Assembly: GCA_963695075.1 (NCBI GenBank)
Contig: CAVOFR010000001.1
Location: 134,724 to 198,723 of the forward strand
Direction: 5' to 3'
Length of the DNA stretch: 64,000 bases
Source of the DNA: an uncultured Acidimicrobiales bacterium
Lineage (GTDB): Bacteria > Actinomycetota > Acidimicrobiia > Acidimicrobiales > CAWCAL01
Position numbers and translations under genes: made by a program. The notes under the pieces are model-generated. The model was given only the letters and a program-made list of their open reading frames with translations, did no database searches and was not told the DNA's origin. Every line of letters begins with the position of its first letter. The stretch's first letter is position 1. Below are positions 40,300 to 59,391 of this stretch, one piece after another.

Positions 40300-40683
40300 T
40301 CAGAAGTCGATGTCAGGTCCGTCGGGGTCGCTGTCCATCGCTCCCATCAGGTAGTCGAACGACCCCACCAGCCAGAGAAGGGTGCCAAGCCCGATGACCC
40401 CCAGCGCCGGACCGAGGAGCGGTCCCGGGTCCTCCAGGACTGACGCCCCGACCTCTTGATTGATGCCGGCACCGAAAGACACCGCGCAGTAGCCGATGAC
40501 ACCGAGGACGGCCACGACAAACCCGCTCATGACGAGCCGCTTGCCGCGGTGCATCCTCTGCTCGGCTCTGGCATAGACCTCCGCCTTGGTGGCGAGCGGC
40601 TCGAGTTCGGACTCGATCGTGTCGTTGCTGTGCGTCGCGCCCATCGAGACGGGCACGACACCTGTGTTGCTCACAGTGCTCAT
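40300..40683 (-). CDS. 2-TM hypothetical membrane protein
   Basis: TAATG coupling to the upstream TDT gene, GGAGG SD, two hydrophobic helices. Confidence 0.7.
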   Translation of the reverse strand: MSTVSNTGVVPVSMGATHSNDTIESELEPLATKAEVYARAEQRMHRGKRLVMSGFVVAVLGVIGYCAVSFGAGINQEVGASVLEDPGPLLGPALGVIGLGTLLWLVGSFDYLMGAMDSDPDGPDIDF

Positions 40684-41867: not shown

Positions 41868-42000
41868 ACTTCGAGGCTAGGACGCACCGGGCGGAGGGCA
41901 TATCGGCGCTCGTCTGAACCCCATGCCAGATGATCGGGAGCTGTCTGTAGGTGTTTGACTGACACCGGCCGGTGCTGCACTGACCGGTGGAACTGGCCGT

Positions 42001-42636
42001 CTACTGCACCAAACCGTGCCGCATTGCGTAGCGCATGAGCTGCGCATTGGAGCTCATACCCATCTTCTCGAGGATCCGCGACCGGTAGGTGCTGATGGTC
42101 TTGACGCTCAAGCCGAGCTGAGCGGCGATCTCGGACACTGAGCGTGCCGACGCCAGGAGCAGGAGCACCTCGTACTCGCGGGGAGAGAGCAGATCGTGCG
42201 GTGTTTCGGATCCGGATCCGACGAGAGCGACATAGTCTGCGAGCTCCGCAGCCACGGTCTCGCTGAGGTAGCGCTTGCCGTCGAGCACGCTGCGGATGGC
42301 CTCCAGGAGCTCCTCGGGCGCACGGTCCTTCGTCAAATAGGCTGAGACGCCAGCGCGCAGTGCACGGACCACGAACTGCCGCTCGCCGAACATGCTCAAG
42401 ACGACGATCGGCATATTGGGGCGGCTCTCCAGCAGCTCTGGCACCAGCTCCAGGCTGTTTCGGTCTTCGAGCGCGATGTCGAGAACGAGTACGGACCAGC
42501 TCCTCTCGCGGATCTTGTCGCGAAGCTCGCTGCAGGAGCCGACCTCGCCGACGATTGCGCCGGGAAACGCATCGGCGACGATCCGGCGCAGCCCTGAGCG
42601 TAGGATCACATGGTCGTCAGCCAGGAGAATGCGCAT
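42001..42636 (-). CDS. NarL/UhpA family response regulator
   Basis: LADDH, LDI, LSPREYEV, LSVKTISTYRSRI. Confidence 0.93.
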   Translation of the reverse strand: MRILLADDHVILRSGLRRIVADAFPGAIVGEVGSCSELRDKIRERSWSVLVLDIALEDRNSLELVPELLESRPNMPIVVLSMFGERQFVVRALRAGVSAYLTKDRAPEELLEAIRSVLDGKRYLSETVAAELADYVALVGSGSETPHDLLSPREYEVLLLLASARSVSEIAAQLGLSVKTISTYRSRILEKMGMSSNAQLMRYAMRHGLVQ

Positions 42637-44422
42637 CGGCGCCTTCCGCTCGGGTCTGCACTGGAACGGTCACGGTCACGGTGGTCCCCTCATGTGGGGC
42701 TCCGTGGATCGAGATGCGCCCATCGACGAGCGTCGCCCGTTCACTCATGCCGATGATTCCCAGCGACTCGCCGCTGTCGATCGCGTCCGTCGTGATTCCT
42801 CTTCCATCGTCGCTTACCACGAGAACCGTGTCCTCTCCCGTCGTTGCCAGGTCGATTTGGACTACCTTTGCCTGCGCGTGGCGAACCACGTTGTTGAGCG
42901 CCTCCTGTGCGATCCTGAACAGCGTCACCGAGACGAGCTCGTCGAGGGCCCCGTCGTCAACTTCCGACTCCACCTGGATGGCGAGGCCGGTACGGGTCTC
43001 GATCTCGCGAGCCTGCCACTCGAGGGCCGCTGTGAGCCCGAGCCTGTCCAGCACACCGGGCCGGAGATCCGAGGAGATTCGTCGCACGAAGTCCACCGCG
43101 TCGTCGAGCTGTCGGGTCATCGCGGCAGCTCCCTCTTGGAGCGCTGCCGCACAGTGTGGCGGCCGGTCGTCAGGGGAACAAGACGACGCCAACCGCGACA
43201 GGTCGATCTTGAGGGAGGTGAGTGTCTGGCCGATCTCGTCGTGCAGCTCGCGGGAGATCCGTGTCGCCTCCGCCTCGCGCGCCACCTGGAGCCGGCTTGC
43301 GAGCGCTCTCAAACGAGTCTGCGCGTCGACGGCTTCGCGCTGACGGGCGGCGAGGGACTCGGCCATCTCGTTGAATGCCGTGGTCACCGACGCCAACTCA
43401 TCGTGGGCGCGTGGCACCTTGGCCCGCGCCGCGAGGTCGCCGGCTCCGAGGCGGCGAGCAGCACGCGCCAGGGAGCGCAGACCACGCAGGAACCCGAACT
43501 CGGCCGCGATGAACACCGCGGCGATCGTGAACAGGGTGAGGACGGTCAAGCCCGCGAGCGTGCGGTAGAAGGCTGAGTTGGCTTGCTCCACCACGCGATC
43601 GTAGGGAAGAGAAACAGCCGCGAAGAGCTCCGGTGATTCCTGCAAGGGGACGGCTACGAAGTAGCGACGGTCGCCCGTATCACCGATTTCGAGCACCCGC
43701 CCCTGCTGCGACTGCGAGAGCTCCGAGACGCCGGCGATGCGCGGAGCACTGGTGTTCTCGACCTCGGCGCCACCACTGTCAGCTACCGCGAGCAGCCGAT
43801 CTCCCGAATCCACGATGAACAGGGCGAGTCCGTCTGGGAGACCGTTCTGTCGATCGATGTCCGAGAGCCAGGCGAGATCGAGTCCGTTGAACAGTACGGC
43901 CATCACCTCGTCGTTGGCATCTCTGACTGCATAGGCGAGATTGAGCGTTGGGCGCTCGAAGATGGTTGAGACGACATAGGTCCCCGACGCAACCTCTTCG
44001 GAACGCAACGCGGCGATGTAGGCCGGGTTGTCTCGCCAGCTTTCGTAGCTCGAGAGGGGATAGGCACTCGCGAGGACCTCGCCGTCAGGCGAGAGAACGC
44101 CGATGTTCGCGAGCTGCGGGTGACCGGCGAGCAGCGCCTCCAAGAACCCGGGGTCCTCGAGGATCGGTGACTGCAACCCGTCAGCGGCCATCTTCGTACC
44201 GAGCCAGGACAGCAGGTCGCGGGCGCCTTGAATCTGATGGGCGTGCTCGCGGCTCGCGAGGCCCGCCAGGTGTAGTGCATCGAGTTCCGTGCGCTCCAGC
44301 GCAGCGGAGCGCTCGTTTCCGGCCACGAAGAATGCGAACAGAACCGCCGGCAGCGTGGCGAGGCAGATGAGAAAGAGCATCCGACCGCGTAGCGACAGCG
44401 GAGTTCTCCTGATGCGGCTCAT
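42617..44422 (-). CDS. Cache-HAMP-HisKA_3 sensor histidine kinase
   Basis: Two TMs around an extracytoplasmic domain, RELHDEIGQ, QEALNN, DDGRG, GMSER. Confidence 0.92.
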   Translation of the reverse strand: MSRIRRTPLSLRGRMLFLICLATLPAVLFAFFVAGNERSAALERTELDALHLAGLASREHAHQIQGARDLLSWLGTKMAADGLQSPILEDPGFLEALLAGHPQLANIGVLSPDGEVLASAYPLSSYESWRDNPAYIAALRSEEVASGTYVVSTIFERPTLNLAYAVRDANDEVMAVLFNGLDLAWLSDIDRQNGLPDGLALFIVDSGDRLLAVADSGGAEVENTSAPRIAGVSELSQSQQGRVLEIGDTGDRRYFVAVPLQESPELFAAVSLPYDRVVEQANSAFYRTLAGLTVLTLFTIAAVFIAAEFGFLRGLRSLARAARRLGAGDLAARAKVPRAHDELASVTTAFNEMAESLAARQREAVDAQTRLRALASRLQVAREAEATRISRELHDEIGQTLTSLKIDLSRLASSCSPDDRPPHCAAALQEGAAAMTRQLDDAVDFVRRISSDLRPGVLDRLGLTAALEWQAREIETRTGLAIQVESEVDDGALDELVSVTLFRIAQEALNNVVRHAQAKVVQIDLATTGEDTVLVVSDDGRGITTDAIDSGESLGIIGMSERATLVDGRISIHGAPHEGTTVTVTVPVQTRAEGADAHSPG

Positions 44423-44703
44423 TCGATCTCCCGTCGGGATCGCCGGCGATGATCATCCAGGCGTGGCGGTCTCGGATCGCCATGGCTTCTAAGCCCAACC
44501 GAACCAACACGCTGAACGATCATGACTTGCCCTGTCACACCAATGCCTCCAGGTAGGTCTCCACGCCGCTTTCGACCCGGCTGAGGCGGGGCGAACCGGA
44601 GGACCTCGTCCGGCCCGAACCCTTCGTGTCGGAATCCAAGCTCGAGCTCGGATCCGGCGATTATCCCACCGGAACTGCCCCGGCGCCTGTCGATCGACGG
44701 GTT

Positions 44704-44732
44704 GGTGACGGTGAGTCGGCCTGTAGGCGGGG
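44704..44732 (-). repeat. att core: duplicate of the rnpB 3' end
   Basis: ggtgacggtgagtcggcctgtaggcgggg identical to 57020-57048 (29/29). Confidence 0.92.
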
Positions 44733-44792
44733 CACAGATCACCCAACCGGCGAACCGTTACCAACGATGGGATCGGGGAGTTACGCCGACCG

Positions 44793-44815
44793 GCCGTGAC
44801 AAAGCCATGACAACG
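44793..44815 (+). repeat. putative integrase arm-type sites, left end
   Basis: gccgtgacaaagccatgacaacg, tandem 11-bp unit, 20/23 identical to 56899-56921. Confidence 0.6.
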
Positions 44816-44996
44816 CATCGTCCGAGGTTCCCATGACTTCGGCGACGGCGGACCTCGTCTCCTCGGCTGAGTCCGCCACGTGCACCCAGGGAACGGCGCC
44901 GAACTTTCGAACACATCGACGGCTCGGAGGAGAAGTTGTCAATGGAATGAAGCGGTTCGTGTCGCGGACGTCATCCACCGCCCGAGATCCGAGACT

Positions 44997-45674
44997 TCAC
45001 GTGAATTCGTCGGCCTGGGATCGGGTACTCGGATGCTCGCGCAACACAGTGACGAGGATGAAGTACAAAACCGGGACCGAGAAGTACAGGACCGTACTGA
45101 GCGTTGTAGACACATCGGCCAAGGCGATCGCCACGAGGTAGAGGGCGAGCGGCGCCGCCGTGATGGCGAGCCCCAGGCCCGTTCGGTCGGTCGACAGGTC
45201 GGTCCACAACAGTGCCGGCCGTTTGACCGCGTACCGGTAGAGCACAAATCGCATCAGGGTGGCGGCGATCAACACGACGCCGTAGAGGTGCAGAGCGACC
45301 GGCTCGTCTGGATACTTTCCGAGCACCGACGCTGCAAACGGGATCAGACTCACCGGCAGCAGGAACAGCAGGTTCAGCCAGACCAGATCGCGATTGACGA
45401 CCCTGACGCGAGCGAGGAGGTCGCGGTGGGCAACCCAGAACATGCCGGTCAGCAGGAAGCTGATCACCCACGCGACGAGGGTGGGTCGCAAGTCGTCGAG
45501 GGCCTCGTGCAGCGACTGCTCCGAGAGATTCTCGGGGACGGCGATCTCGAGCACCAGTATCGTGATGATGATCGCGAACACACCGTCGCTCAGCGCCACG
45601 ACGCGATCAGGGCTGCGCAGTCGTCGCTGCGTACCGTTCGTTCCCGAGTCGGGAGGGCCCTGCTCCTCAGTCAT
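44997..45674 (-). CDS. TMEM175/DUF1211 family channel
   Basis: RVVALSDGVFAIIITILVLEI, FWVAH, WLNLLFL. Confidence 0.9.
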   Translation of the reverse strand: MTEEQGPPDSGTNGTQRRLRSPDRVVALSDGVFAIIITILVLEIAVPENLSEQSLHEALDDLRPTLVAWVISFLLTGMFWVAHRDLLARVRVVNRDLVWLNLLFLLPVSLIPFAASVLGKYPDEPVALHLYGVVLIAATLMRFVLYRYAVKRPALLWTDLSTDRTGLGLAITAAPLALYLVAIALADVSTTLSTVLYFSVPVLYFILVTVLREHPSTRSQADEFT

Positions 45675-45709
45675 CGAGCCATCCTCGCAGACACCACCGG
45701 CGACGCCAA

Positions 45710-45726
45710 TCGCTCATTGTGGATGA
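45710..45726. promoter_or_regulatory. putative LuxR operator between divergent TMEM175 and ClC genes
   Basis: TCGCTC-attgt-GGATGA fits TCRYNC-N5-GNRYGA. Confidence 0.5.
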
Positions 45727-45826
45727 TCGTTCACCGACCGACAGCTGCAAACATGGTTCGGATCCGGGTGCGTTGATCCCGGCGCGGCAACATCGTGGCG
45801 TCCGTACCAGAACCCGAGGCACCAAC

Positions 45827-47089
45827 ATGACGACGGCGCTCCCCATCGACCGACCGTGGTACCGACAACTTCTCGCCATCGCCCTGGCGATGGGACTCGT
45901 CATCGGCCTGCTCGGGCTCGTCTATCTCGCGATCACCGGCGGGTTGACCGATCGGATCTTCGGTGATCCACGGATCGACACCTGGTCCGGCGACTGGTGG
46001 TGGATCCCGTTCATCGCGGCCGGCGGTCTGGTGGCGGCGGCGGTGCGCAGCTGGCTGAACATCACCGATCACGTGCCCGGTGGCGTCGCCGTCATCGAAT
46101 CCGGTTCGGTCGACCACAAGGTCGCACCGTCGTGGGTCCTCCTCTCGGCCGTCTCAGCGATCGCGGGCGCCAGCCTCGGGCCATCGTTTGCCCTGGTCAT
46201 GATCGGAGGCGGCCTCGGTTCGTGGATCGCATCGCGGCGCTGGCCGGGTGACGAGCCGGCCCGTCTCGACACGACGTTGGCGGGCATCTCCGGTGGCTTC
46301 GGTGGCGCCTTCACCTCCCCGGGTCTCGGGACGCTGATCGTCAGCGAGCTGGCCCCAACGCCGAAGGATCGGTACATCGAGTCGATCCTGCCGCAACTGT
46401 TCGCCGCGACGATTGCCTTCGCCGTGTTCTTCGGCGTGGTCGGCACGACGTTCCTCAACAGCTTCGCAGTGCCGGTCGACGACTTCTCGAGCTGGCACCT
46501 CCTCATCGGTGCCGCGCTCGGAATCGCCTCGAGCGTGATCATGATCGTGTTCGTCTTCATCGTGAAGCTGATCCAGGCGGTCGCGACGAAGCTGTCGAAC
46601 CCGTACGTGCGCGGCGCCGTCGGTGGCGCGCTCGTCGGGCTGATCGCGTTCGCACTCCCGCTCACCATCGGGGCTGGCAACGATCAACTCACCACGGTGA
46701 TCGACGAGTCGGCATCGATCAGCATCTGGCTGCTCGTCGCGGTGCTCGTCGGCAAGATGCTGGCGATGGCGATCAGCCTCGCCACGGGCTTCATCGGCGG
46801 CAACGTGCTGCCGATGCTCTTCGTCGGCGGCACCGCCGGCGTCGTCGCGCACCTGATGTTCCCCGACATCCCGTACGCAATCGCTGTCGGGTGCATGCTG
46901 GCGGCCGTCCCAGGGGCGACGATCAAGGCGCCGATCGGGCTCACGTTCATCGCCGTGCTCGCCGTGGGCCTCGGTCCACTCACGGCCGCTCCGGTCTTCA
47001 TCGCTGTGGCGACGGCGTACCTGACGACCTCCACCGTCGTCGCGCTGATCAGGTCACGGCGAGTCGACGTACCCGAGCCGCACGCCTGA
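45827..47089 (+). CDS. ClC family chloride channel-like protein
   Basis: GASLGPSFA (GxEGP-equivalent), GGAFTSP, GFIGGNVLP, multiple TMs. Confidence 0.85.
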   Translation: MTTALPIDRPWYRQLLAIALAMGLVIGLLGLVYLAITGGLTDRIFGDPRIDTWSGDWWWIPFIAAGGLVAAAVRSWLNITDHVPGGVAVIESGSVDHKVAPSWVLLSAVSAIAGASLGPSFALVMIGGGLGSWIASRRWPGDEPARLDTTLAGISGGFGGAFTSPGLGTLIVSELAPTPKDRYIESILPQLFAATIAFAVFFGVVGTTFLNSFAVPVDDFSSWHLLIGAALGIASSVIMIVFVFIVKLIQAVATKLSNPYVRGAVGGALVGLIAFALPLTIGAGNDQLTTVIDESASISIWLLVAVLVGKMLAMAISLATGFIGGNVLPMLFVGGTAGVVAHLMFPDIPYAIAVGCMLAAVPGATIKAPIGLTFIAVLAVGLGPLTAAPVFIAVATAYLTTSTVVALIRSRRVDVPEPHA

Positions 47090-47118
47090 CCACCGGATGG
47101 TGAATGGTCGCGGCGTCG

Positions 47119-48867
47119 TCACCCAGGGGGTGCGCTCGGGTGGAGCGTCTGATGCATGGCGACCGCGGCCTCGATGTTGTCGTGGACGTGGCTCCGATCG
47201 ACGAGGTCGAAGAAGCCGTCCCGTTCGAGCACCTCGGTCACCTGTGGTTTCACGCGGGCGAGGTGCAGGTCGATGCTCTGGTCGATGCCGGCCCGGGCGA
47301 TCGCCGTCAAGACGTCGGCCCCCTCGGTGTCGATGAAGTTGACGCCCTCCATGCTCAGAATCACGCCGTCCAAACCTGTCGGTTCCTGGACACGGATCTG
47401 ACGGAGGCGGTCCGCGAGCGCATCGGCGTTGACGAAGAACAGCCCGCCGTCGAACCGGAGGATCTTCAGCCCGGGAATGGTCTCACAGTCGTCGTGCCGC
47501 TCGAGGTCGTAGAACGCATCGGTCCCCGGCTTGCGGCCCAGCTCCGGGATGTACGGCAGCGCCGAGACCGCGATGAGCCAGATCATCGAGATCCCGACTC
47601 CGATGAAGACCCCTTGCAGGATGCCGAATGTCATCACGCCGAGCAGGGCGAGGAGCGCAGCGCCGAACTCGTACCGCTTGACTGTGACCAGTCGCCTCAT
47701 CTCCCCGACGTTCATCATGCCGAGCGTCACGGCCTCGATGATGATCGCTCCGAGCACCGCCTCGGGGAGCTTCGAGAAGATCGGCGCGAGGAAGAGCAGG
47801 GTCAGGATCACGAAGCCACCCTGGGCGAGGGTCGACACCTGTGACCGTGCCCCGGCGCCGTCGTTGACGGGGCTCTTGGAGAGGCTGCCGTTGTTGAAGA
47901 TCCCCTGGAATACGCTCGACGACACGTTCGACATGCCCTGGGCAAGCAGTTCCTGGTCGACGTCGATCCGGTAGTTGTGCTTGGTCGCGTATTGGCGCAC
48001 CCCGGCGGTCGTCACCGAGAACCCGATGAGCACCAGTCCGACCGCTGCGCCGAACACCACCGACCAGTTGTCGAAGATGATGTCCAGGTCGGGGAACGAG
48101 GGATTCGGAAGGCCTCGCGGCACGTCGGCGATCAGTTCGACTCCGCGGTCGCCGAGATCGAAGACCACGGTCGCGAGAATGCCGAGGAGCACCGCGACCA
48201 GCTCGGCGGGTACCTTCGGCACGAGGAACTTGAGGCCGAACAACACGACCAGCGCCACCGCGCCGACGGCGACCGTGGTCCGGTTCGCGTCGGACAGGCT
48301 CGCCGCCCACTCCCAGAGCTTCTCCCACGTGTTCGAACCCGACTTCTCGGTCCCCGCGAGCTTGAAGAGCTCACCGGACACGACGTTGATTGCGACGCCG
48401 AAGATGAACCCGGTCAACACGGCCGCCGAGAGGAACTCGGCGATCCAGCCCATCTTGAGTACGGCCATGATTACGAACAGCAGCCCGGCGACCAGCACGA
48501 TGGCCGTGGCGATCGCCACCGCGTCGTCGGAGCCCGCCGCTCCGATCGACACGATGGCCGCACCCAGCACCGGGGCGGTCGACGAACCCGGGCCCTGCAC
48601 CAGTTGCTTCGACGTCGTGAAGAGCGCGAACACGATCATGCCGAACGCCGCGGCGTACAACCCGTTCTGGACCGGGACGCCGCTCAACGACGCGTAACCG
48701 AGCGAGGTGGGGACCATCAGCGCCCACACCGACAGCCCGGCGATCACGTCCTTGGTGAGCCAAGACCGCTGATACTGGGGCAGCCAGGCCAGGATCGGAA
48801 CGAACCGCTTGATCGAACTCGGTTTGGATTCCGCCGTCGCGACCCCTTGGCTGCCCTCAGCACCCAT
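47119..48867 (-). CDS. SulP family anion transporter with STAS
   Basis: PTSLGYA, GLY, QGP, GSLSKS, GARSQ, FIDTEG. Confidence 0.92.
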   Translation of the reverse strand: MGAEGSQGVATAESKPSSIKRFVPILAWLPQYQRSWLTKDVIAGLSVWALMVPTSLGYASLSGVPVQNGLYAAAFGMIVFALFTTSKQLVQGPGSSTAPVLGAAIVSIGAAGSDDAVAIATAIVLVAGLLFVIMAVLKMGWIAEFLSAAVLTGFIFGVAINVVSGELFKLAGTEKSGSNTWEKLWEWAASLSDANRTTVAVGAVALVVLFGLKFLVPKVPAELVAVLLGILATVVFDLGDRGVELIADVPRGLPNPSFPDLDIIFDNWSVVFGAAVGLVLIGFSVTTAGVRQYATKHNYRIDVDQELLAQGMSNVSSSVFQGIFNNGSLSKSPVNDGAGARSQVSTLAQGGFVILTLLFLAPIFSKLPEAVLGAIIIEAVTLGMMNVGEMRRLVTVKRYEFGAALLALLGVMTFGILQGVFIGVGISMIWLIAVSALPYIPELGRKPGTDAFYDLERHDDCETIPGLKILRFDGGLFFVNADALADRLRQIRVQEPTGLDGVILSMEGVNFIDTEGADVLTAIARAGIDQSIDLHLARVKPQVTEVLERDGFFDLVDRSHVHDNIEAAVAMHQTLHPSAPPG

Positions 48868-48873
48868 CGCGCA

Positions 48874-49401
48874 TCAGCTCTCTGCCTCGGCGTCCTTCTT
48901 GATCTCCGCGGTGTCAGCCTCGAGCTGTTTCTCCTCGACCTTGTCGGCCTTGCCCATGACGCCCTCGATCTTCGCGCCCATGTCGGACACACCGACCACG
49001 ACGAGCCCGGCCTCGCCGGCATCGAGGTTCTCTCCGAGCTCCTTGAGGTCCTTGCGGCTCATACCGGCCGCTGCGTGCCCGGCCATTGCACCGAGGGCCG
49101 CACCGCCACCGGTGGTTGCCGCGAGCAGCCCGCCCCCTAGCGCGGCCGCCGGGAACAGCGCGACGACAAGGCCGGTCGCGAGGCCGATGCCCGCGCCACC
49201 CCAGCCGCCCGCCCGTGTGGGCGTCTCGTGCTTCTTGACGATCTTGACCTTACCGTTGTCCTTGCGCTCGATGACGGCGGCGTCGTAGGCGTCGATGAGG
49301 CCTTCCTTGGTGTGGAGGTCGTGAACTGCCTGGTAGTCGGCCTTGGCGTCGTCGACGCCCGAGTACACGCCGACGTACGCCATGAATGTGTCCATTGCCA
49401 T
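48874..49401 (-). CDS. DUF1269-like membrane protein
   Basis: DAAVI, Gly/Ala-rich hydrophobic hairpin, LGENLDAGEAGL; AGGAG SD. Confidence 0.8.
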   Translation of the reverse strand: MAMDTFMAYVGVYSGVDDAKADYQAVHDLHTKEGLIDAYDAAVIERKDNGKVKIVKKHETPTRAGGWGGAGIGLATGLVVALFPAAALGGGLLAATTGGGAALGAMAGHAAAGMSRKDLKELGENLDAGEAGLVVVGVSDMGAKIEGVMGKADKVEEKQLEADTAEIKKDAEAES

Positions 49402-49467
49402 GTCCTGCTCCTTCGTTCGGTGAACCACTTGACAACGCCATCCTGACCCCGACTCGCGCAGCAGCAG

Positions 49468-49654
49468 TCATGCAACCTGGGTGATCCGATCACCGACGGG
49501 ATCGACCGGCGGATGTGGATTCCCGGTGTCAGCCGAGCACGCTCGGCGCCAGCAGGCCCAGCTCCCGGGCCCGGTCGACCGCCTCGCTACGACCGGACAC
49601 CGCCAGCTTCCGGTAGATCGAGTTGGCCTGGGTGCTCACCGTGTTCCTCGACAC
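49468..49654. repeat. 187-bp direct repeat, copy A (orphan luxR 3' end + operator)
   Basis: Matches 52915-53101 with one mismatch seen. Confidence 0.92.
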
Positions 49655-50409
49655 ATCCCGAGCGACGTGTGAACTCAGCTGCCGGGTGATCGCGCCCCGC
49701 CGGGGTAATCACTCCGACGACGCGCTGCCACCCCACCCGCGGATGACGCGCTCCTGTTCGGTCTGATCGGTGATGGCCTTCGTGCCGGTGGGGTTGCGCC
49801 ATCAGAACTTGCGGTCGTCGTCGTCGCCGGTGCGGTCGTAGATCGGGTAGTCGGCATCTGCGGGAGGGAATGCATCTCTGGACGCTGAACGGGCGACACG
49901 CCTGTGCGGCGGTTGGGCCCTAGTAACCCAGTACTTCATGTGCGGCGAACAGTTCGTGTTCGATGTCGCACGGCAACTGGACATGCCGACGTACGAAGCG
50001 GAGCAACTCGTCGCCCATTTGGAGCAGTACCAGCTCCGTCGTTCGACTGGGTGATGAACTTCACGCTGGCGTGAACCTTCGGCGCAGGCGCAACCGTGCC
50101 AAGGGTCCAGCGAATCGGCGCCCCGAGCCGCTGAGCGGCTCTCCGACCGCCGCTGGGGTCGCCTGCAAGGGGCCGGTAGTAGCGTCCATCGTCCAGGCTG
50201 ATGAAAGGCGCAGCGACCTCAGTCACATGCGCCACGACCTCGCCAACGTCAGACTGGAGAGGGCGTCGCCTTCAGGCGTCGTGGGAGCAGAACCAGCCGC
50301 AGTCGGTGCCTGAGCAGCCGCCCTCCGAGCAGACCGATCGGCAGGACTCTGGGGGCGGAGCGGTCTTCGGCGCGATCACGTAGCGGGTCTGGCGGACAAG
50401 AACGGCGAT

Positions 50410-51156
50410 TCACGCCATTCGCGTCCGGAGTTCGTCATAGAGCGCTCGGTAGGTGGCGGCGGCGGCGGTCTTGGGTCGTTCGACGGTGACCGGGGAGCGG
50501 TAATCGGCCATGGTCTCGATGTGGACGGAGGCGGGAATCGACTGGTCGAGAACGGGCTCGCGCTCGAGCGGGAGGCGTTCGGACAGCTCTCGGTGTCGCT
50601 TCTTGCGTCGGTCGACCATCGAGAGGAACGCGAGGGCTTGGACGTTGCGGAGTTTCCTGTCGGCTCGGAGGTAGGCCGTCAGTTGGTCGAAGCTCCGTAG
50701 GGGCAGTGCCGCCGGAATGATCGGGACCAAGACGGTGTCGGTCGCTCGTAGCGCCGTGTCGATTGTCAGCGTGATGCCGGGAGGGCAGTCGAGGAACACC
50801 GAGTCGAAGCGATCTTCGACTCGTTCGAGGATTCTCGTGATCTGCGCTCTCGGCTTGGCGAGGTCGGCGAGTTCGAGGTCGAGGTAGCGGAGCGAGAAGT
50901 CAGCGGGCACGACGTCGAGCCCTGGGTGGATCGTGTGGACGATCGATTCGCTCATGCGGCGGCGTTTCCTCACCATCCTCCTTCCACCCCCTGGGACGCG
51001 CTCCCCGACCCGCAGGATGTGGGTTGCAGCACCTTGGGGATCGAGGTCCCAGAGAAGGGTGCGGTCGCCGGACTCGGCCGCGAGTTGTGCGAGATTGACC
51101 GCGGTCGTTGTCTTGCCGACACCACCCTTGATGCTCGCCAGTGCGATGACCTTCAT
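50410..51156 (-). CDS. ParA/MinD family ATPase
   Basis: KGGVGKTT deviant Walker A, DLDPQ, DCPP; TGATG coupling to the CYTH-CHAD gene. Confidence 0.92.
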   Translation of the reverse strand: MKVIALASIKGGVGKTTTAVNLAQLAAESGDRTLLWDLDPQGAATHILRVGERVPGGGRRMVRKRRRMSESIVHTIHPGLDVVPADFSLRYLDLELADLAKPRAQITRILERVEDRFDSVFLDCPPGITLTIDTALRATDTVLVPIIPAALPLRSFDQLTAYLRADRKLRNVQALAFLSMVDRRKKRHRELSERLPLEREPVLDQSIPASVHIETMADYRSPVTVERPKTAAAATYRALYDELRTRMA

Positions 51157-52661
51157 CAGCGGCGCCTGGTGGCGAGGTCGGCTCGGTCGGTCCGCTTCCA
51201 CTGCTTTCGAAAGTCGGCCTCGCAGTGGCCGGCGCGAGCGACGAGCAGGCCGGCCAGTTCCCCGGCCGCGAACGCAAGTTCTGGATGTCGGCTTGCCGTG
51301 GTGGCCAGGTGAGCTCTGATGACGATGGCGTCGTTGAGGTCCCCCAACGAGTTCTGGATCAGCTTCATCGCCTTCGCCAACCGGCGGGCGGGCTTGCCCA
51401 TCACCGGCTCGACTGCCTCCGCTGCATACCGGCATCGTTTCGACCTGATTCTGATGCGATGGATCTCCCCATGGCTCGGTTCCGGGCCGAGCCGTGCCAC
51501 AGCCTTGCGGAGCTTGCGCCATGGCCGATCGACCAGCGCCGGGATGGTTTCCTCGGCGGGGTCATCAGCCTGAGGGGCCGTTCGTGGGTCATCGGCTGCG
51601 GCGACCAGGTGGTCGAGGAGTTCGGTGCACCGTGGGCTGTCGAGCGCTTCGAGGAGGCGGGCATGCGCTTGGTTCCGTTCGACCCGCAAGTGCTCGAGCA
51701 ACGCCTTGGTGTCGTCTTCGTCGATATCGGGCTCGCCGTCGATCACGTGGGTCAGGACCTCGATGCGGACGTCGGCGTCGCGGACTTCGCCGAGCCGGTC
51801 TCCAAACCATCGAACCTCGTCGGAGACCTCAGCGACCCAGATCGGATCCAGAAGCGGACCGAAGGTCCTCAGATCAGACCGAAGGCGCCGTAACGCCACC
51901 CGGGCCTGATGAACACCTTCGGTTCCCTCGCCGACCCGTGCGATCGGAAGATTCAGGAGATGCGATTCGACCGATCGGGCGATCGCAGCGTGGATCACCT
52001 CCCTCGCCGTGGGAGAACCGCTCACGGGAGGAATGACCACGTCCGGAGGGGACTCGGCGGACGCTCCGAGTGCACGTGACAGCTTGGATTGAAGCGTGAG
52101 CCGGCCGCCCGCCTGCTCGTAGCACTCCAGGATGGAAGCGACGTCGTTCGTCGTGCGTCCCTCTGCGAGCTCGATCTCCACCATCTTGAAGTTCCACGCA
52201 GGCTGCCCCGGCACCTCGACGCGGACGTCGTCTTCCACGAGTTCTGCGACAGGGTGGCTGTCCGCATCGAGCACAAGGACCGGCTGTCGGATGGTATGGA
52301 GACGGGCAACCGTGACGAGCGCCTCGCCGCGGGCGAAGGGGCCGACGAGGCGGCTCGCGAGCGCCGGGGGCGACGATCCATCGTCGGCGATCAGGACCTC
52401 GGTGCGCAGCAGAACTCCCGAGCCGTCATTCCCGGTGGGCGCAGGGAGTTTCACCATCCACCCCTCATCGGACCGGCGCCGCAAACTGCACCCCCAACGG
52501 GTCAGGCGCAGGCTGTCCCCCGTGTCGAAATACTCGGCGCCGAGCTGGCGCTCGGGCAATACCGTGACCGAGCCACGACCGGCGCCAGCGGTCTCACCCA
52601 GATCCGGAATCACCAGTCCCGCATCAAAATCCAGCTTGATCTCTCGCTCGACCGACGCCAT
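51156..52661 (-). CDS. CYTH and CHAD domain protein
   Basis: EREIK, YFDT, LRRR, VEIEL (CYTH); HQARVALRRLRS, LGEVRDAD, HRIRIRSKRCRY, QNSLGDLND (CHAD). Confidence 0.92.
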   Translation of the reverse strand: MASVEREIKLDFDAGLVIPDLGETAGAGRGSVTVLPERQLGAEYFDTGDSLRLTRWGCSLRRRSDEGWMVKLPAPTGNDGSGVLLRTEVLIADDGSSPPALASRLVGPFARGEALVTVARLHTIRQPVLVLDADSHPVAELVEDDVRVEVPGQPAWNFKMVEIELAEGRTTNDVASILECYEQAGGRLTLQSKLSRALGASAESPPDVVIPPVSGSPTAREVIHAAIARSVESHLLNLPIARVGEGTEGVHQARVALRRLRSDLRTFGPLLDPIWVAEVSDEVRWFGDRLGEVRDADVRIEVLTHVIDGEPDIDEDDTKALLEHLRVERNQAHARLLEALDSPRCTELLDHLVAAADDPRTAPQADDPAEETIPALVDRPWRKLRKAVARLGPEPSHGEIHRIRIRSKRCRYAAEAVEPVMGKPARRLAKAMKLIQNSLGDLNDAIVIRAHLATTASRHPELAFAAGELAGLLVARAGHCEADFRKQWKRTDRADLATRRR

Positions 52662-52914
52662 CAGTGATCCGCCGAGCCAAGCATCCTTGCGGTGGACGAA
52701 CTCTGGGCGAGGGCGCCGAGCTGGCGGTGGTGACCGACAGCCACCGCGTCGGACATCTCCGGCGTCCTCAGCGAACGCGCCGGCGGCGGCCGGTTGAAGG
52801 ATGCGTGGCTCGCGATCCGGTGGCTGGCGCTCAACAGGGACTCCGGCGGCAGACGATGTAGACGCCGGTCAACATAGCTGGGGGGAGGAGGCCCACCGAC
52901 GCACCGAAACCGAA

Positions 52915-53101
52915 TCATGCAATCTGGGTGATCCGATCACCGACGGGATCGACCGGCGGATGTGGATTCCCGGTGTCAGCCGAGCACGCTCGGCGCCAGC
53001 AGGCCCAGCTCCCGGGCCCGGTCGACCGCCTCGCTACGACCGGACACCGCCAGCTTCCGGTAGATCGAGTTGGCCTGGGTGCTCACCGTGTTCCTCGACA
53101 C
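52915..53101. repeat. 187-bp direct repeat, copy B
   Basis: See 49468-49654; includes the last 42 codons (incl. stop) of the LuxR gene. Confidence 0.92.
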
Positions 53102-55225
53102 GTACAACCGTTCACCGATCTCCTTGAGCGAGAGATGCGTCTGCAGATACGGCAGCAGACGGAGTTCGGCGGTCGACAGTGCGGTGCCGTGCAGATTCGT
53201 CGGCCACTCGCTCAACGTCTGTCGGAGCACGTCTGCTCGCGCGCCGAGGCGGCCGAGTTTCGGTCGCCGGTACAGGACCCCTTCGACCTCCTGTAGCAGC
53301 GTCCTGGCGGCCCCGGGATCGCTCAATACCAGGTGGGCATCGGCCATCTCGAGACGCAACCACACCGCACCCCACGGGTTCACCCAGGTGACCGACGTCC
53401 GCAAACGCATTGCACGGGACAACGACACCCGACCCGTCTCGGTCTCGTTGCGCTGGAGCAACAGCCGGGCGCGGGCCGCCTCGACGATCGAGTTGACGGC
53501 GTACTCGGCGAGCTGTGCGCCATCGACCACCGAGACGGCGAGCTTGAGGTCGCGGTCGGCACTCTCCCAGTCGCCCCGATCCATCGACAGCACCGCCCGG
53601 TAGGCGAGGTAGCGCGCCTCGGGGTCGTCGAATCCGTCGACGCTGGTTGTCACCTCGATGCTCTCCGAAAGGAGTGCGAACGCCTCGTCGTCGTCGTCCT
53701 GCAGCCATCGGGCCACCGCGAGAAAGCCCAGGGAAGCCGGCCGCCATAGAGACCAGACCGGCTCATCGGTCACGACCGATCTCGCGTCCGCTTCCATCTG
53801 CTCGAGGCCGTGCGCACAGAGAAAGGCCCGGAGCGCAGCACGGCTCGACACGAACGATTCGTCCTCCGAGTCACCCGCGGACGTCAGGCGCTCGATGCGA
53901 TCGGCCCAGCGCTGCGCTCCGACGGCATTCCCAGTCAATGCTTCGAGCCAGCCGACCAGTCCGGCCAGTTCCGGATTCCGTTCGATCATCTCCTCGCCGA
54001 GTTGGTCCAGCCAGCTCCTGACAGCGCTCAACCGTCCGTCGTTGTACGCACGCGGCACCTCCGTGACGATCACGTCAGCGGCGATGGTGAGATCTCCGCC
54101 TGCCCGAGCATGTTCGATCGTGCGCTCGACCGAACCGGCCGCCGCCCACCACCGAGCGGCGCGCAGGTGGCGCTCCCGAACGGCGTCCAGTCCGGAACGG
54201 CTGGCCTCGTCGAGCAGCGCCGTCCTGAACATCGGGTGATAGCGATACCACCCGGCATCTCCGGCGAGTGGCGTGACGAACAGACGCGCGTTCATCAGGG
54301 TGTCCAACATCGCCGCCGAGTCGGTCGAGCCGACGACCGCGTCGCAAAGCGAGGGGTTCAGCACGTCCAGGATCGCCGTCCGATGCAGAAAGCGCGCGAC
54401 CTCTGGTGGGAGCCCAGCCAGGACCTCCGATCGGATGAGTTCGGACACGGCCCGGTCGGGCGACGACGGCGCGATGCTGGAACCGATCATTGCCGAGTCG
54501 CTGCGCTGGGTGAGCGCCAGGAGCGCAAGACCAGCGGGCCATCCCTCCGTTCGCTCGAGCAACCCACGAACCCGTTCGGGTGACGGTGCCAACCCATGGA
54601 GATCGAGGAGTTCCGCCGCCTCGACAGCGTCGAAGACGAGATCGGGCGCACCGATCTCGAGCACCTCGCCGTGCACGCGCCGACGACCCCCGGCGAGCCA
54701 CACCTCCCGGCGACTGGAGACGACCAGCTGGACCTGCTCGGGCAGGAGATCGAGGAGCAGCCGGAGCGCGTCACGGCAGTCGAGTGATCGGACCTCGTCG
54801 AGGTGTTCCAACACGATGACGAGCGGCTCGTCGACCGCACCGATCGAGGCCGCCAACGCCGGCACGACACGGCCTAGTATCGAGACGTCGGGCGAAGCCA
54901 GTTCCTGGGAGAGGGAGGGGTCGAGCTTCCGCACCCGCCTCACCCCGGTGACGATCGATGTCATCAGCGTCGCGACGTCGTCGTCGGTCCGGTCCAACGA
55001 CACCCACGCGACTGCGCGATCATCCTGTTCCAGCCAGTCGACGAGCAGCGTCGTCTTGCCATATCCGACTGGCGCCGACACGACGACCAACGGGAGGTCC
55101 GCGCCGGCCGCGAGCAGGCTCGTCAGGCGCCGCCGCCGGACGATCCCCGAACGCACCCGCGGCACACCGGTCTTCGCATCGACGAGAACCTGGTGAACGT
55201 CGATGCCGCCGATCCGGGTACCCAT
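52976..55225 (-). CDS. MalT-like large ATP-binding LuxR-family regulator
   Basis: APVGYGKTT P-loop, AWVSLD, TEGWPAGL, WYRYH, C-terminal HTH LSTAELRLL...VSRNTV...IYRKL. Confidence 0.92.
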   Translation of the reverse strand: MGTRIGGIDVHQVLVDAKTGVPRVRSGIVRRRRLTSLLAAGADLPLVVVSAPVGYGKTTLLVDWLEQDDRAVAWVSLDRTDDDVATLMTSIVTGVRRVRKLDPSLSQELASPDVSILGRVVPALAASIGAVDEPLVIVLEHLDEVRSLDCRDALRLLLDLLPEQVQLVVSSRREVWLAGGRRRVHGEVLEIGAPDLVFDAVEAAELLDLHGLAPSPERVRGLLERTEGWPAGLALLALTQRSDSAMIGSSIAPSSPDRAVSELIRSEVLAGLPPEVARFLHRTAILDVLNPSLCDAVVGSTDSAAMLDTLMNARLFVTPLAGDAGWYRYHPMFRTALLDEASRSGLDAVRERHLRAARWWAAAGSVERTIEHARAGGDLTIAADVIVTEVPRAYNDGRLSAVRSWLDQLGEEMIERNPELAGLVGWLEALTGNAVGAQRWADRIERLTSAGDSEDESFVSSRAALRAFLCAHGLEQMEADARSVVTDEPVWSLWRPASLGFLAVARWLQDDDDEAFALLSESIEVTTSVDGFDDPEARYLAYRAVLSMDRGDWESADRDLKLAVSVVDGAQLAEYAVNSIVEAARARLLLQRNETETGRVSLSRAMRLRTSVTWVNPWGAVWLRLEMADAHLVLSDPGAARTLLQEVEGVLYRRPKLGRLGARADVLRQTLSEWPTNLHGTALSTAELRLLPYLQTHLSLKEIGERLYVSRNTVSTQANSIYRKLAVSGRSEAVDRARELGLLAPSVLG

Positions 55226-55293
55226 GGTCCCGACACGGTAGCGGAACCCGCTCGGCCGCTTCCGAAGGTGTGGGCTCCGACATCCACGCCCTG

Positions 55294-56712
55294 TCAGAGG
55301 TCGCGGACGATGGGCACCCGGCCGTCGTCGACGGCACCGATCAGTTCGTCGTAGTCCTGCTCGGTGCGATCCGCATAGGCCTCGGCGAACCGGGCTACCG
55401 CCCGATCGAAGGTGTCGTCGTCGCCGATGTACCCGGAGATCATCGACGCGTCACCGGACCGGGCGTGGGCGCGTCCGAGCGCTGCTCCACAGGCCATCGC
55501 ATAGCGTCGGATCACCTTCGCCGTCATGGTCTCGACGTCAGCGGACGCCTTGCCGTCCCAGAGTTGACGGACGTAGAAGTCGGTGGTCGATTCGTCGTCA
55601 CGCTCGTAGCGGGCCCACCCGAGGAGCGCGTCCGGTGTCGCCTGGATCCTTCGTTGGCCGTCGACGACGCGGTGGCCTTCCTGGTCGAATCCGCTCGGCG
55701 CCAGGTGCGCCTCGAGCACCGACGGCGCCGCCTCCTTGATCTGCAGGAACAGCGGTTCGCCGTCGCCCGATTCGAACAGCGCGATCAGACATCGGGTACC
55801 AACACTGCCGACGCCGACCACCTTGCGTGCCAGGTCCGTCAGCGAGTAGCGGTCCATCAGTTGGCGCCGGTCGGCGTTCAGCGTTGCCCGGTAGTCGTCG
55901 AAGAACCCATCGATCCGCGTCATCTCCTCCCGGCGTTGCGCATCGGTCATCGCCACGATCAAAGGCGGGTTCGACACGATCACGCGGCGACCGTGGACCA
56001 CGTCGGTGAGCTTGCCCAGCGCCCCGAGGCTGTTCTTCTTCGCCGACTTCCTGCGCGTCTTCGCCAGACGGCGCCGATCGCTCTTCGCCGTGGCGAGCGT
56101 CGTGGCCAGCTCCTCGACATCCAGCCGGTAGTAGAAGAGATCGAGTGGGTTCATCGCCGCCGCGGTCTGGATCGCCCGGCGATACTCGGAGGTCGCTGCC
56201 CGCGCGATCTTCCGACTGGTCTTCTTGTCGAAATGGTTGTTCCGGCCCGCCACCACGACGCTGGCCGCGAGTCGCTTGACGTCCCATTCGAAGGGTCCCG
56301 GAAGCGTCTCGTCGAAGTCGTTGATGTCGAACACGAGACGGCGTTCGGGTGAGGAGAACATCCCGAAGTTCGACAAATGAGCGTCACCGCACAATTGCAC
56401 GGTGATGTCGGTCCGCGGACCCGCCGCCAGATCGGCTGCCATGACCGCCGCCGACCCGCGCAGGAACGTGAACGGTGTGGCCAACATCCGCCCGTATCGG
56501 ATCGGCACGAGATCCTGAAGTCGGTTCGCGTCCTGGGCCTGCAGGATCGCCAGAGCGCTGGCTCGATCATCGGGAACGACGAGATCTGCGTGCTCATCGA
56601 GCGGCACCGACTCACGCCGGCCCCGACCGGCAGCAGCCCGCGCTACCTTGGGCTCGCGCCGACTCTCGAGCGACCAGCGTGGGTCACGCTGGGAGGTCTT
56701 CGGGACACCCAT
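55294..56712 (-). CDS. DUF2252 family protein (kinase-like)
   Basis: RYGRM, FLRG, CGDAHLSNFG, FDINDFDE, KVVGVGSVG, LQIKEA, FYVRQL, AHARSGD. Confidence 0.92.
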   Translation of the reverse strand: MGVPKTSQRDPRWSLESRREPKVARAAAGRGRRESVPLDEHADLVVPDDRASALAILQAQDANRLQDLVPIRYGRMLATPFTFLRGSAAVMAADLAAGPRTDITVQLCGDAHLSNFGMFSSPERRLVFDINDFDETLPGPFEWDVKRLAASVVVAGRNNHFDKKTSRKIARAATSEYRRAIQTAAAMNPLDLFYYRLDVEELATTLATAKSDRRRLAKTRRKSAKKNSLGALGKLTDVVHGRRVIVSNPPLIVAMTDAQRREEMTRIDGFFDDYRATLNADRRQLMDRYSLTDLARKVVGVGSVGTRCLIALFESGDGEPLFLQIKEAAPSVLEAHLAPSGFDQEGHRVVDGQRRIQATPDALLGWARYERDDESTTDFYVRQLWDGKASADVETMTAKVIRRYAMACGAALGRAHARSGDASMISGYIGDDDTFDRAVARFAEAYADRTEQDYDELIGAVDDGRVPIVRDL

Positions 56713-56809
56713 GACTTCTCCCTGTGGTAGGTGGCGTGGTGGTCGATGGCGTGATGAGCCACGATCGCAGGATCGATCTTCATTTTCCAGGACGGCGATG
56801 CGATCCGCA

Positions 56810-56826
56810 TCATCCGTTCTGCGCGA
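56810..56826. promoter_or_regulatory. putative LuxR operator upstream of DUF2252
   Basis: TCATCC-gttct-GCGCGA. Confidence 0.5.
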
Positions 56827-56898
56827 TGCCTCCCCGTTCACCCGCAGTGGACGACGGGCCCACTCTCGGGCCACCGGACAACGACGCATGGTCTCGAC

Positions 56899-56921
56899 GC
56901 CGTGACAACGCGATGGCAACG
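56899..56921 (+). repeat. putative integrase arm-type sites, right end
   Basis: gccgtgacaacgcgatggcaacg. Confidence 0.6.
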
Positions 56922-57022
56922 GTGAGGACGAGACCGGACGAAATCGTGAGTGTCCGTGCGAAAGCCAGCGGACCCCGGATCCCCTGTGCCCCTTGGGATT
57001 CCCCCTGAAACTCAGGGCCGGT

Positions 57023-57415
<393 letters not shown>

Positions 57416-57532: not shown

Positions 57533-58981
57533 TCAGAACTCGACGGCGGAGAGGTCGCTGTGCCATCGGGCCGATCGATCGACCGCCTCGCGCCACCGGT
57601 CCCGGTCGGTGGCCGGACCCGGGTCGACCACCACGGCCGGCGACCACAGCTCGGCGATCTCCTCGAAGCCGGCCCACATGCCGGTGGCGAGGCCGGCCAG
57701 ATAGGCGGCGCCCATGGTGGTCGCCTCGGTGATCGGTGACACCTCGACAGGTCGCTGCGCCGCGTCGGCGAGCGCTTGACAGAACGTACGGTTCTGGCTC
57801 ATGCCGCCGTCCACCCGCAGCGCCGGGATGTCGATCCCCGCGTCGGCCTCGGCGGCCTCGACCAGATCGGCCCCGCTCTCGGCGACGCCTTCCAGGACGG
57901 CGCGCACCAGTTGGGGGCGCCCCGTGCCGCGGGTCACGCCCAACAGCGTGCCCCGAGCGCCGTAGTCCCAGCGCGGCGTTCCCAGCCCGAGGAGCGCCGG
58001 CACGAACACCACACCATCGGTGTCATCACAGGCCGCCGCGATCTCGTGGCTCTCGGCGGCCGAGGCGAGCACGCCGAGGTCGTCCCGCAGCCACTCGACG
58101 TTGGTACCCGCCGCCAGCATGATCGCCTCGAGGCCCCACACCGGTCGGCCCCGTTCCTGCCACGCCACTATCGGGAACGTGCCGTGCTGACCGCTGACGT
58201 CGAACGACGGACGATCCGGGCCCACGCAGACGTCGAGCATGCCGCCGGTGCCGAATGTGATCTTCGCCATGCCCGGCCGGACCGCGCCCTGACCGATGAG
58301 CGAGGCCTGCTGGTCGCCCGCGATACCGGAGATCGGCGGCGCACCGTCCAGAACGGTCGCCTCGGCGACCTTTCCGGTCGAGTCGACGATCGAGGGCAGC
58401 ATCGCGGTCGGGATGTTCAGCCGGTCGAGGACGGTCGAGTCCCAGGTCGGCCGCCCGTTCTCGACGAGGCCTGTGACGGCCACGTTGGTCCGGTCGGTGA
58501 TGTGGGTCCGGCCTTCGGAGAGAAGCCAGACGATCCATGTGTCCATGGTGCCGAACCGGAGGTTCCGGGAGCGGTCCGGATCGTGCAGATCGAGCAGATG
58601 CGACAGCTTCGTGGCCGACTGGTTCGGTGCCAGCCGCAGCCCATCGGCCTGCAGGACGAGGCAGTCCCCGACGGTGCGGAGGTCCTGCCAGCCGATCGCC
58701 GGAGCGACCGGTTCACCGGTATCGGCGTCCCAGACCACGGTGGAGGCCCGCTGATTGGCCACCCCGACACCGACGACCGGACCGGCTGCGGCGAGGGTGG
58801 TTCGAGCCGCGTCGAGCGCCGCTTCGGCCACCGCGATCGCGTCGAACTCGACCAGGCCCGGAGCAGGCGTGACGGGAAGGGCGGCGCGGACCTCTTCGTG
58901 GGACACGGTTCCGTCCGCGGCCACGACGGCGGCGCGGACCGAACTGGTCCCGAGGTCGATCACCAGCAGACGCGATGTCAC
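57533..58981 (-). CDS. FGGY family carbohydrate kinase (glycerol kinase-like)
   Basis: IDLGTSSVRA, NQRAS, WQDLRT, GDQQA, KITFGTG, VDGGM. Confidence 0.88.
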   Translation of the reverse strand: MTSRLLVIDLGTSSVRAAVVAADGTVSHEEVRAALPVTPAPGLVEFDAIAVAEAALDAARTTLAAAGPVVGVGVANQRASTVVWDADTGEPVAPAIGWQDLRTVGDCLVLQADGLRLAPNQSATKLSHLLDLHDPDRSRNLRFGTMDTWIVWLLSEGRTHITDRTNVAVTGLVENGRPTWDSTVLDRLNIPTAMLPSIVDSTGKVAEATVLDGAPPISGIAGDQQASLIGQGAVRPGMAKITFGTGGMLDVCVGPDRPSFDVSGQHGTFPIVAWQERGRPVWGLEAIMLAAGTNVEWLRDDLGVLASAAESHEIAAACDDTDGVVFVPALLGLGTPRWDYGARGTLLGVTRGTGRPQLVRAVLEGVAESGADLVEAAEADAGIDIPALRVDGGMSQNRTFCQALADAAQRPVEVSPITEATTMGAAYLAGLATGMWAGFEEIAELWSPAVVVDPGPATDRDRWREAVDRSARWHSDLSAVEF

Positions 58982-59391
58982 GGTTCCCCCTCCGTCCCGG
59001 ATCGGGCCTTCCGATCCTCGCCGACCATCCAACGGTTGGCCACCATCCCCCCGACGACCCCGAGCGACGAGGCGAGGATCCCGAAGACCGGGTAGCGCCA
59101 GAGGTCGACGGGATCGCCGGCCGCGAGGCGGCGGAGGTGGAGGACCACCTGGAGGAGGACATAGGCGATGACGGGGGCGAGCGCCGCGTGCTGGAGCGGA
59201 GTGGTGCGCTCGATACGAGCGGCGCCGAAGCCGGCGGTCATCAGGCCGAACGCGATGGCCAGCACGAACAGGGCCACGACCCCGGCACCGGCACCGTTCC
59301 GGGTTATCAGTGTGCCGATCACCGCGGCCGGACCGGCGATGAGCAGACCGGCCGCCGCTCCGTTGACGAGCGCTCCCCAGTTGATGGTCAT
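58978..59391 (-). CDS. 4-TM membrane protein
   Basis: Four hydrophobic helices; GTGA overlap with the kinase start. Confidence 0.75.
   Translation of the reverse strand: MTINWGALVNGAAAGLLIAGPAAVIGTLITRNGAGAGVVALFVLAIAFGLMTAGFGAARIERTTPLQHAALAPVIAYVLLQVVLHLRRLAAGDPVDLWRYPVFGILASSLGVVGGMVANRWMVGEDRKARSGTEGEP

Follow-up and report, generated by a model that had tools for sequence, protein, structure and literature searches.

How did the 3′ end of an RNase P RNA gene (rnpB) come to lie twice, 12.3 kb apart, in the genome of an uncultured Acidimicrobiales bacterium, and what is the DNA between the two copies? We address this question for a stretch of 64,000 nucleotides (the window; G000:C1:134724-198723), which lies within a 348-kb contig of a 4.65-Mb genome. 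Positions given below are those of the window unless a contig is named, and G, C and L numbers are our handles for genomes, contigs and loci. The DNA between the copies is an island of cargo genes with no integrase, and we conclude that it is probably a decayed relic, resembling a cis-mobilizable element (CIME), of an element whose heterobivalent tyrosine integrase used the rnpB 3′ end as its bacterial attachment site (attB).

The only RNA gene that Rfam detects in the window is rnpB, a complete bacterial class A RNase P RNA gene at 57024-57410 on the minus strand (RF00010, 232.4 bits, model positions 1-367 of 367, not truncated); ARAGORN found no tRNA or tmRNA genes in the window. The 29 nt at 57020-57048 (minus strand; hereafter the attL core), comprising the 3′ strand of P1 and the tail at the 3′ end of the working gene, recur at 44704-44732 on the same strand as a displaced copy with 29/29 identity (the attR core). 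A first-pass annotation of the DNA had claimed both that this repeat is exact and that rnpB is intact, and it was right on both counts. The two copies are the only matches in the window with up to three mismatches, whereas none of 100 shuffles gave any, and they are also the only two copies in the genome with up to five mismatches. In the RNA sense the block begins right after a conserved ACAGAA and spans the joining stretch, the P1 3′ strand and the 3′ tail. It is wholly rnpB sequence, rather than the end of the gene plus 4 nt, because an identical tail is native to several relatives. The locus thus has the two marks of an island in a structured RNA gene, a regenerated target gene and a displaced direct repeat of its 3′ end at the far end. 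G+C content is 0.63-0.68 across 40-57 kb, versus 0.69-0.72 in the flanks.

No integrase or other recombinase lies between the repeats, as had also been claimed. Pfam identified no recombinase among 20 open reading frames (ORFs) of the 42.6-57.2 kb region. Six-frame searches of the genome gave 15 matches to PF00589, none of them in the window and the nearest at C1:7352-7579, and a single match to PF00239, on C3 and likewise outside the window. Homologs of the rnpB-linked integrases described below were sought in the 64-kb window with tblastn and with a hidden Markov model (HMM) of their clade, and none was found. Phage structural, packaging and replication genes are missing as well, a PHROGs search of 21 ORFs yielding just a ParA-like protein and regulator matches, and the small ORFs near the island ends gave no Pfam or PHROGs match to an excisionase.

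The same end of rnpB is duplicated in other genomes of the order. We surveyed 401 sampled genomes with a 21-nt pattern from the rnpB 3′ end, allowing up to two mismatches. The pattern matched in 298 of the 401 and occurred at least twice in 59, this genome counted and the unpublished G143 and G255 included; this figure is an upper bound, because some double matches fall on separate contigs of fragmented genomes. A reversed-pattern control gave four matches overall. When a sample of the whole phylum was searched, the fixed pattern was present in just 15 of 401 genomes, 13 of them from this order, so the pattern is order-specific and uninformative for other orders. From the 17 genomes whose listed matches shared one contig and strand we took 19 loci. 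All 19 have the true rnpB end followed by one to three same-orientation copies 1.2-18 kb downstream, each copy lying after unrelated DNA. Rfam found one full rnpB in nine of ten loci tested, and the tenth (L081) proved to be two fragments whose contig has the true rnpB at a distance of 100 kb. Arrays of three to four rnpB fragments are present in G324, G253, G365 and G244.

Several of these islands carry tyrosine integrases. A Pfam search of 123 of the 596 ORFs in the 19 loci (those of at least 150 amino acids that passed a third-position G+C filter) identified PF00589 in L080, L081, L082, L086 and L087, a TrwC relaxase in L082, and terminase, capsid and portal genes in L084. An HMM built from these five island integrases was then run on all ORFs of at least 50 amino acids in the 19 loci, the window, and the loci of two same-genus genomes, G001 and G002. 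This search revealed a further full integrase, in L084, and integrase remnants in L083, L077 and L093, and gave no matches in the window, G001 or G002 loci. Counted by genome (n = 17), five have a full tyrosine integrase, three have remnants only and nine have none, with the proviso that a recombinase unrelated to this HMM could escape detection. The integrases of L080, L081, L082 and L087 share 50-81% mutual identity, and that of L086 is 30-36% identical to them.

Viruses use the same sequence. The exact 21-nt core is present in four IMG/VR contigs of 8-40 kb, none of which has a full rnpB. Each of the four has an integrase beside the core (E values of 3.5e-147 to 2.6e-33 against the island HMM), and two of them have the same tandem repeat on both sides of a single core, an arrangement like that of a phage attachment site (attP). 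In a phylogenetic tree, six island integrases group with three of the four viral ones in a single clade (support 98/93) that excludes 10 of the 11 other integrases of the host; the fourth viral integrase falls elsewhere, on a long branch. The suggestion of the first-pass annotation that rnpB serves as an attB is therefore supported by independent loci, namely the 17 genomes with displaced fragments, five of them with full integrases, and the four viral contigs.

Two of the arrays have features of their own. In G244 (C31:96524-224638; L081 and L082), four rnpB 3′ ends lie on one strand across 128 kb; a 10-kb island with an integrase and the TrwC relaxase adjoins rnpB, and a 14.5-kb island with an integrase, a prohead protease and WhiB is 100 kb away. 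Either the array is very large or the region has been rearranged. The presence of WhiB in one island, together with the composition of the phylum sample, hints at a small class of Actinomycetota. In G324 (C5:242962-264865; L078 and L079), a three-copy array at rnpB includes a 17.6-kb member with GmrSD, an MmeI-like methylase-nuclease, an SNF2 helicase and a PLD nuclease, and no integrase is detectable in this defense island.

The window and the integrase-bearing islands are linked by the geometry of short repeats flanking the cores. Tandem repeats spaced by 11 nt, which the first-pass annotation had reported just inside both ends in the same orientation, are indeed present at 44793-44815 and 56899-56921 (plus strand), 60 nt (left) and 98 nt (right) inside the cores. 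In the RNA sense the motif is GTTGYCA, located at +106 and +117 from the core pattern on the rnpB side, and at -84 and, with one mismatch, -73 on the distal side. A degenerate 12-mer of these repeats has four matches in the window versus 0.05 expected; its 11 matches in the genome are near the base-composition expectation by our own estimate, and three of the 11 are at the island ends. Four of the related islands (L080, L082, L083 and L087) have a different motif, TGAGGAC, in a corresponding layout. Its copies on the rnpB side, two to four at 11-nt (once 8-nt) steps or a single one in L080, fall between +103 and +137 relative to the core, and those on the far side, two copies 11 nt apart, between -84 and -62. 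L081 and L077 have the same arm design with other motifs, L084 and L085 have tandem repeats at +47 to +60 and -141 to -129, and L086 has one shared motif at +56 and -134. The motif thus varies by lineage (GTTGYCA in the window, and TGAGGAC, GCGACAC and others elsewhere) and the spacing and distance are kept, so that the window matches islands with integrases or integrase remnants in arm geometry and differs from them in motif. Repeats flanking the core on both sides at fixed distances, as in L080-L083 and L087, are a feature of heterobivalent attachment (att) sites. We infer from this geometry, which provides the strongest support, that the window repeats are arm-type sites once recognized by a now-lost integrase of distinct arm specificity, and the earlier proposal that such sites are retained here is favored accordingly by spacing and core distances like those of integrase-bearing islands.

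The repeats lie in non-coding arms. The arm adjoining rnpB is 307 nt long (56713-57019); in related islands the integrase gene begins about 190 nt from rnpB, and in the window a gene for a DUF2252 protein occupies the rnpB-adjacent place where some of them have it. The arm adjoining the displaced fragment is 264 nt long (44733-44996) and has a 16-nt motif that is also found next to rnpB in G002.

A simple series of events would account for this organization. A mobile element would have integrated into the rnpB 3′ end by means of a heterobivalent (lambda-type) tyrosine integrase that bound the core together with tandem 11-nt-spaced arm repeats on either side. With the final 29 nt of rnpB also present in its attP, the element would have restored a functional gene on integrating (attL) and displaced the original end by 12.3 kb (attR). 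Later it would have lost its integrase gene, along with whatever transfer or phage genes it had, leaving two att arms of about 300 nt around the cargo, inside which there is a second, nested insert of 3.3 kb. Movement of such an island would be expected only after integration alongside it of a related element whose arm specificity matches. Since no cognate integrase is present, the island is most likely immobile in this genome.

Several observations weigh against this reading, and they concern the extent of the island, its arms and its cargo. In G001 and G002, the DNA corresponding to 25.3-39.9 kb of the window and the segment from rnpB to the gene for an FGGY carbohydrate kinase are colinear with the window at 74-79% identity (about 92% for rnpB in G002); the kinase gene (57533-59032, minus strand) forms the conserved flank 5′ of rnpB and is also beside rnpB in three other families. 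Between these colinear parts lie 2.9 kb in G002 and 2.2 kb in G001 of unrelated DNA, versus 17.1 kb in the window. In the search for an empty site, the window was compared by blastn with the rnpB loci of G001, G002 and G005, 39886-44732 was searched for in G001 and G002, and contigs of four metagenome runs were included. The island is absent beside rnpB in both G001 and G002, which favors an insertion and bears out part of the expectation of the first-pass annotation, but no exact junction of rnpB with the DNA left of 44704 was found in these loci or in the metagenome contigs; in G001 and G002 the downstream DNA is unrelated to the left flank of the window. The metagenome runs matching the window are from sediment, soil and salt marsh and match at most 0.17 of sampled words; the contigs of the four runs (at 85% likeness) come from other strains and are thus silent on excision, and none of them crosses the att junctions or joins 44703 to 57020. 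The variable DNA begins at 39886 and not at 44704: the 4.8 kb to the left of the displaced fragment is likewise missing from G001 and G002, so the 12.3-kb repeat boundary fails to account for all of the strain-specific DNA. No third rnpB fragment bounding 39886-44703 was found in the window with up to eight mismatches in 29. As for the arms, binding by an integrase is suggested by their geometry only. The joint search for the arm motif, rnpB duplications and linked integrases that had been called for gave duplications with integrases but no element with the arm motif of the window; a sibling element with the same motif and an integrase was not found, the 22-nt arm pattern having two unrelated matches in 185,579 species genomes and one chance match in a collection of metagenome contigs. 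Finally, a block in G002 that is closely related to the cargo is bounded by neither an rnpB core nor arms, and some other form of recombination may have placed the cargo within a pre-existing att frame.

The strain-specific stretch outside the repeats (39886-44703, genes on the minus strand) encodes a SLAC1/TehA-like anion channel (40683-41867), a LuxR response regulator (42001-42636) and a Cache-HAMP histidine kinase (42617-44422). It raises the possibility, which we regard as real if doubtful, that the locus is composite, consisting of an older insertion (39886-44703) and a younger one (44733-57019), both at rnpB, with the outer att site of the older one eroded and a true island of 17.1 kb. 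Consistent with this, the entire interval 39886-57019 is missing beside rnpB in G001 and G002, the lower G+C begins at about 40 kb and so covers the outer stretch too, both parts have anion-channel or transport genes, and tandem arrays at rnpB are known in other genomes. However, the search of the window described above gave no third rnpB fragment, and G001 and G002 also differ from each other here, so that the site may be a hot spot for other kinds of change. A composite origin would be compatible with descent from an rnpB-targeting integrase element as we propose.

Further to the left, the zinc-ribbon gene (36181-36903) and the histidine-phosphatase gene (37410-37997) lie about 19 kb from rnpB. 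The first-pass annotation had stated that these genes are usually near rnpB in actinobacteria and placed them at this distance here; both are found, and in the two same-genus genomes they are 4-5 kb from rnpB. Next to them, acyltransferase-like and CAAX-protease-like genes (38031-38888 and 38950-39885) are in reversed order relative to G001 and G002, on the same strand.

An alternative that we consider unlikely is that the island is a working hitch-hiker, one that either never required an integrase of its own or retains its att sites because of selection, and that a related element or phage targeting rnpB, when present, excises and transfers it in cis or in trans. In its favor, the two 29-nt cores do not differ, and at either end the arm pair is intact and at the canonical distance; the three- to four-fragment arrays in G324, G253, G365 and G244 would be suitable intermediates, tandem accretion being a route of mobilization described for CIMEs in PMC6323972; and the integrase-less state is frequent, as nine of the 17 islands have no integrase. 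But the genome has no integrase of the rnpB clade, the nearest to it (L045; G000:C7:2199086-2200182) being about 41% identical, frameshifted and located beside half of a tRNA gene at a contig end. Nor was an element with the same arm motif found in this genome, the species genomes or the collection of metagenome contigs, and no excision or circle junction was seen in the contigs of the four metagenome runs, which came from other strains. It is very improbable that the repeat is an assembly error or a chance or illegitimate duplication of the rnpB end with no footprint of recombination, even though reads matching the window cover at most 17% of sampled words and none are from the source sample, given that an exact 29-nt repeat is unexpected by chance (0/100 shuffles), the same layout recurs in 17 other genomes, in part with integrases, and in four viral contigs, the arm repeats are at canonical distances, and the window is inside a 348-kb contig.

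The L045 integrase adjoins a tRNA 3′ half and a tandem 11-nt repeat, and is sister to the rnpB clade. Its position beside a tRNA gene fragment suggests that the rnpB-targeting clade arose among tRNA-targeting enzymes. We considered it as a candidate for the island's own integrase and dropped it, as it adjoins the tRNA 3′ half with tandem repeats of its own.

The decayed relic that we propose would follow a known mechanism, that of tyrosine-integrase elements at tRNA and tmRNA genes. In lambda-type attP sites, and in actinomycete elements such as pSAM2, arm-type repeats flank the core and the integrase gene adjoins attP. The rnpB islands are similar in having arms on both sides of the core and an integrase next to attP, and one of them has a TrwC relaxase; they differ in that the arm motifs at the rnpB site vary among lineages and in that arm binding is predicted from sequence. 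There is also a likeness to the CIMEs beside ICESt3 of Streptococcus thermophilus, in that the site is used, in other genomes, by related elements that do have an integrase. The target of the ICESt3-associated CIMEs is reportedly the 3′ end of fda; in the window the target is an RNA gene and the host is of high G+C, no known partner element shares the arm motif, and mobility is judged from the DNA sequence. CIMEs are described as elements that keep both att sites, have no recombination and transfer genes, and are mobilized via tandem accretion (PMC6323972). The island fits this definition because both att sites are kept and the recombination and transfer genes are absent: the putative attL and attR appear intact, with identical cores and predicted arms on both sides, no integration or transfer genes are present, and the sole gene resembling those of mobile elements is the ParA-like ATPase of the nested insert.

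In the islands of structured RNA genes described in PMC4383910, the gene is rebuilt by the replacement end of the element and a displaced fragment marks the far end. The rnpB islands share with them the targeting of the 3′ part of a structured RNA gene, its rebuilding, the displaced fragment and the tandem arrays, at least as these are set out there. They differ in that rnpB is outside the scan of that resource by design, going by its account of the scan, and in that the copy in the window has no integrase. In further contrast to tRNA islands, the identity block in the window is the P1 3′ strand and tail and not a tRNA stem-loop. A 2026 survey of proviruses, ProBord, attributes 13.5% of the RNA targets of proviruses to non-coding RNA genes, and RNase P RNA has no occurrence in its main text, to which this statement is limited since the supplements may list rnpB (PMC13626063). 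We found no paper naming rnpB as an attachment site, and two rnpB papers that we checked use the gene as a phylogenetic marker only. The mechanism is therefore known, and the rnpB target and its frequency in the order appear to be unreported.

We regard the evidence as evenly balanced on a broader proposal, that the rnpB 3′ end is a major integration hot spot in the order. Two or more tyrosine-integrase lineages, carried by phages, relaxase-bearing elements and defense islands, would use it, and up to about one genome in seven would be marked, with arm spacing and distance fixed, the motif changing by lineage, and most islands ending integrase-less and CIME-like. If so, tools limited to tRNA and tmRNA genes would overlook all such islands. 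As rnpB is single-copy, essential and nearly universal, an integrase family landing in it would have a conserved and predictable docking site, and pairs of integrases and att sites with clear arm and core geometry could be used to integrate DNA into high-G+C bacteria. Decay into fixed cargo would be illustrated by the gradation from phages and relaxase-bearing elements, through islands with integrase remnants, to islands with no integrase, the cargo so far consisting of ion channels and anion transport in the window and restriction and defense genes in one relative. Taken alone, the window is a modest finding, a relic island at an unusual address.

The cargo begins, from the displaced fragment, with a TMEM175-like potassium channel (44997-45674, minus strand; PF06736, E 2.2e-26), a CLC-type chloride channel (45719-47089, plus strand; PF00654, E 6.1e-37) and a SulP anion permease with a STAS domain (47119-48867, minus strand; PF00916, E 1.7e-82, and PF01740). 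These are followed by a membrane protein with a weak DUF1269-like match that is below the cut-off (48874-49428, minus strand; PF06897, E 2.6e-4). Toward rnpB, the cargo ends with a STAND-type ATPase with a LuxR (GerE) DNA-binding end (52976-55225, minus strand; PF00196 and PF13191) and the DUF2252 protein (55294-56712, minus strand; PF10009, E 7.4e-141).

Between these two groups is a pair of 187-nt direct repeats with sharp borders, at 49468-49654 and 52915-53101, which differ by one mismatch; the first copy duplicates the 3′ end of the LuxR-type gene and forms the left border of a 3.26-kb insert (49655-52914, minus strand) with a ParA-like ATPase (ORF 50410-51522) and a CHAD protein (51156-52661). 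The cargo on either side of it (44997-49654 and 52915-55430) is 87-88% identical to one contiguous block in G002 (L108; G002:C6:710473-717475), in which the 187-nt repeat is present once, in uninterrupted form, and one metagenome contig joins 49442 to 52981 without the insert. The 3.26 kb is therefore a later, nested insertion, which has the appearance of a second insertion, again without an integrase, into the 3′ end of a gene. The segment with the ParA-like and CHAD genes (50254-52909) is 96% identical to a third G002 locus. As both the cargo (87-88%) and the insert (96%) are more similar than the core flanks (74-79%), the cargo has moved between lineages recently. There is no rnpB fragment in the G002 cargo loci, no tRNA gene in 46 kb around the G002 block and no integrase among the 36 ORFs scanned there; the neighbors of the block are accessory genes, including PRiA4_ORF3, Schlafen/AlbA_2, and pairs of HTH and DUF6036 genes.

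Two further motifs are associated with the att regions. The 16-nt motif in the arm adjoining the displaced fragment (44755-44772) is 22 nt from the displaced core and matches the rnpB-adjacent sequence of G002 at 15 of 16 positions (L031, 17844-17859). It resembles a palindromic site near rnpB in G253 (the attL region of L091), its position misfits a simple integration scheme, and it is possibly another site of protein binding. The island in the window does not have the CTGACC(W)GG motif that many genomes of the order show 10-40 nt past rnpB, often after a hairpin (flanks of L001-L028 and L077-L095). The inverse motif, GGTCAG/C, precedes many displaced fragments, and the two together may form a core-type inverted repeat of the att sites.

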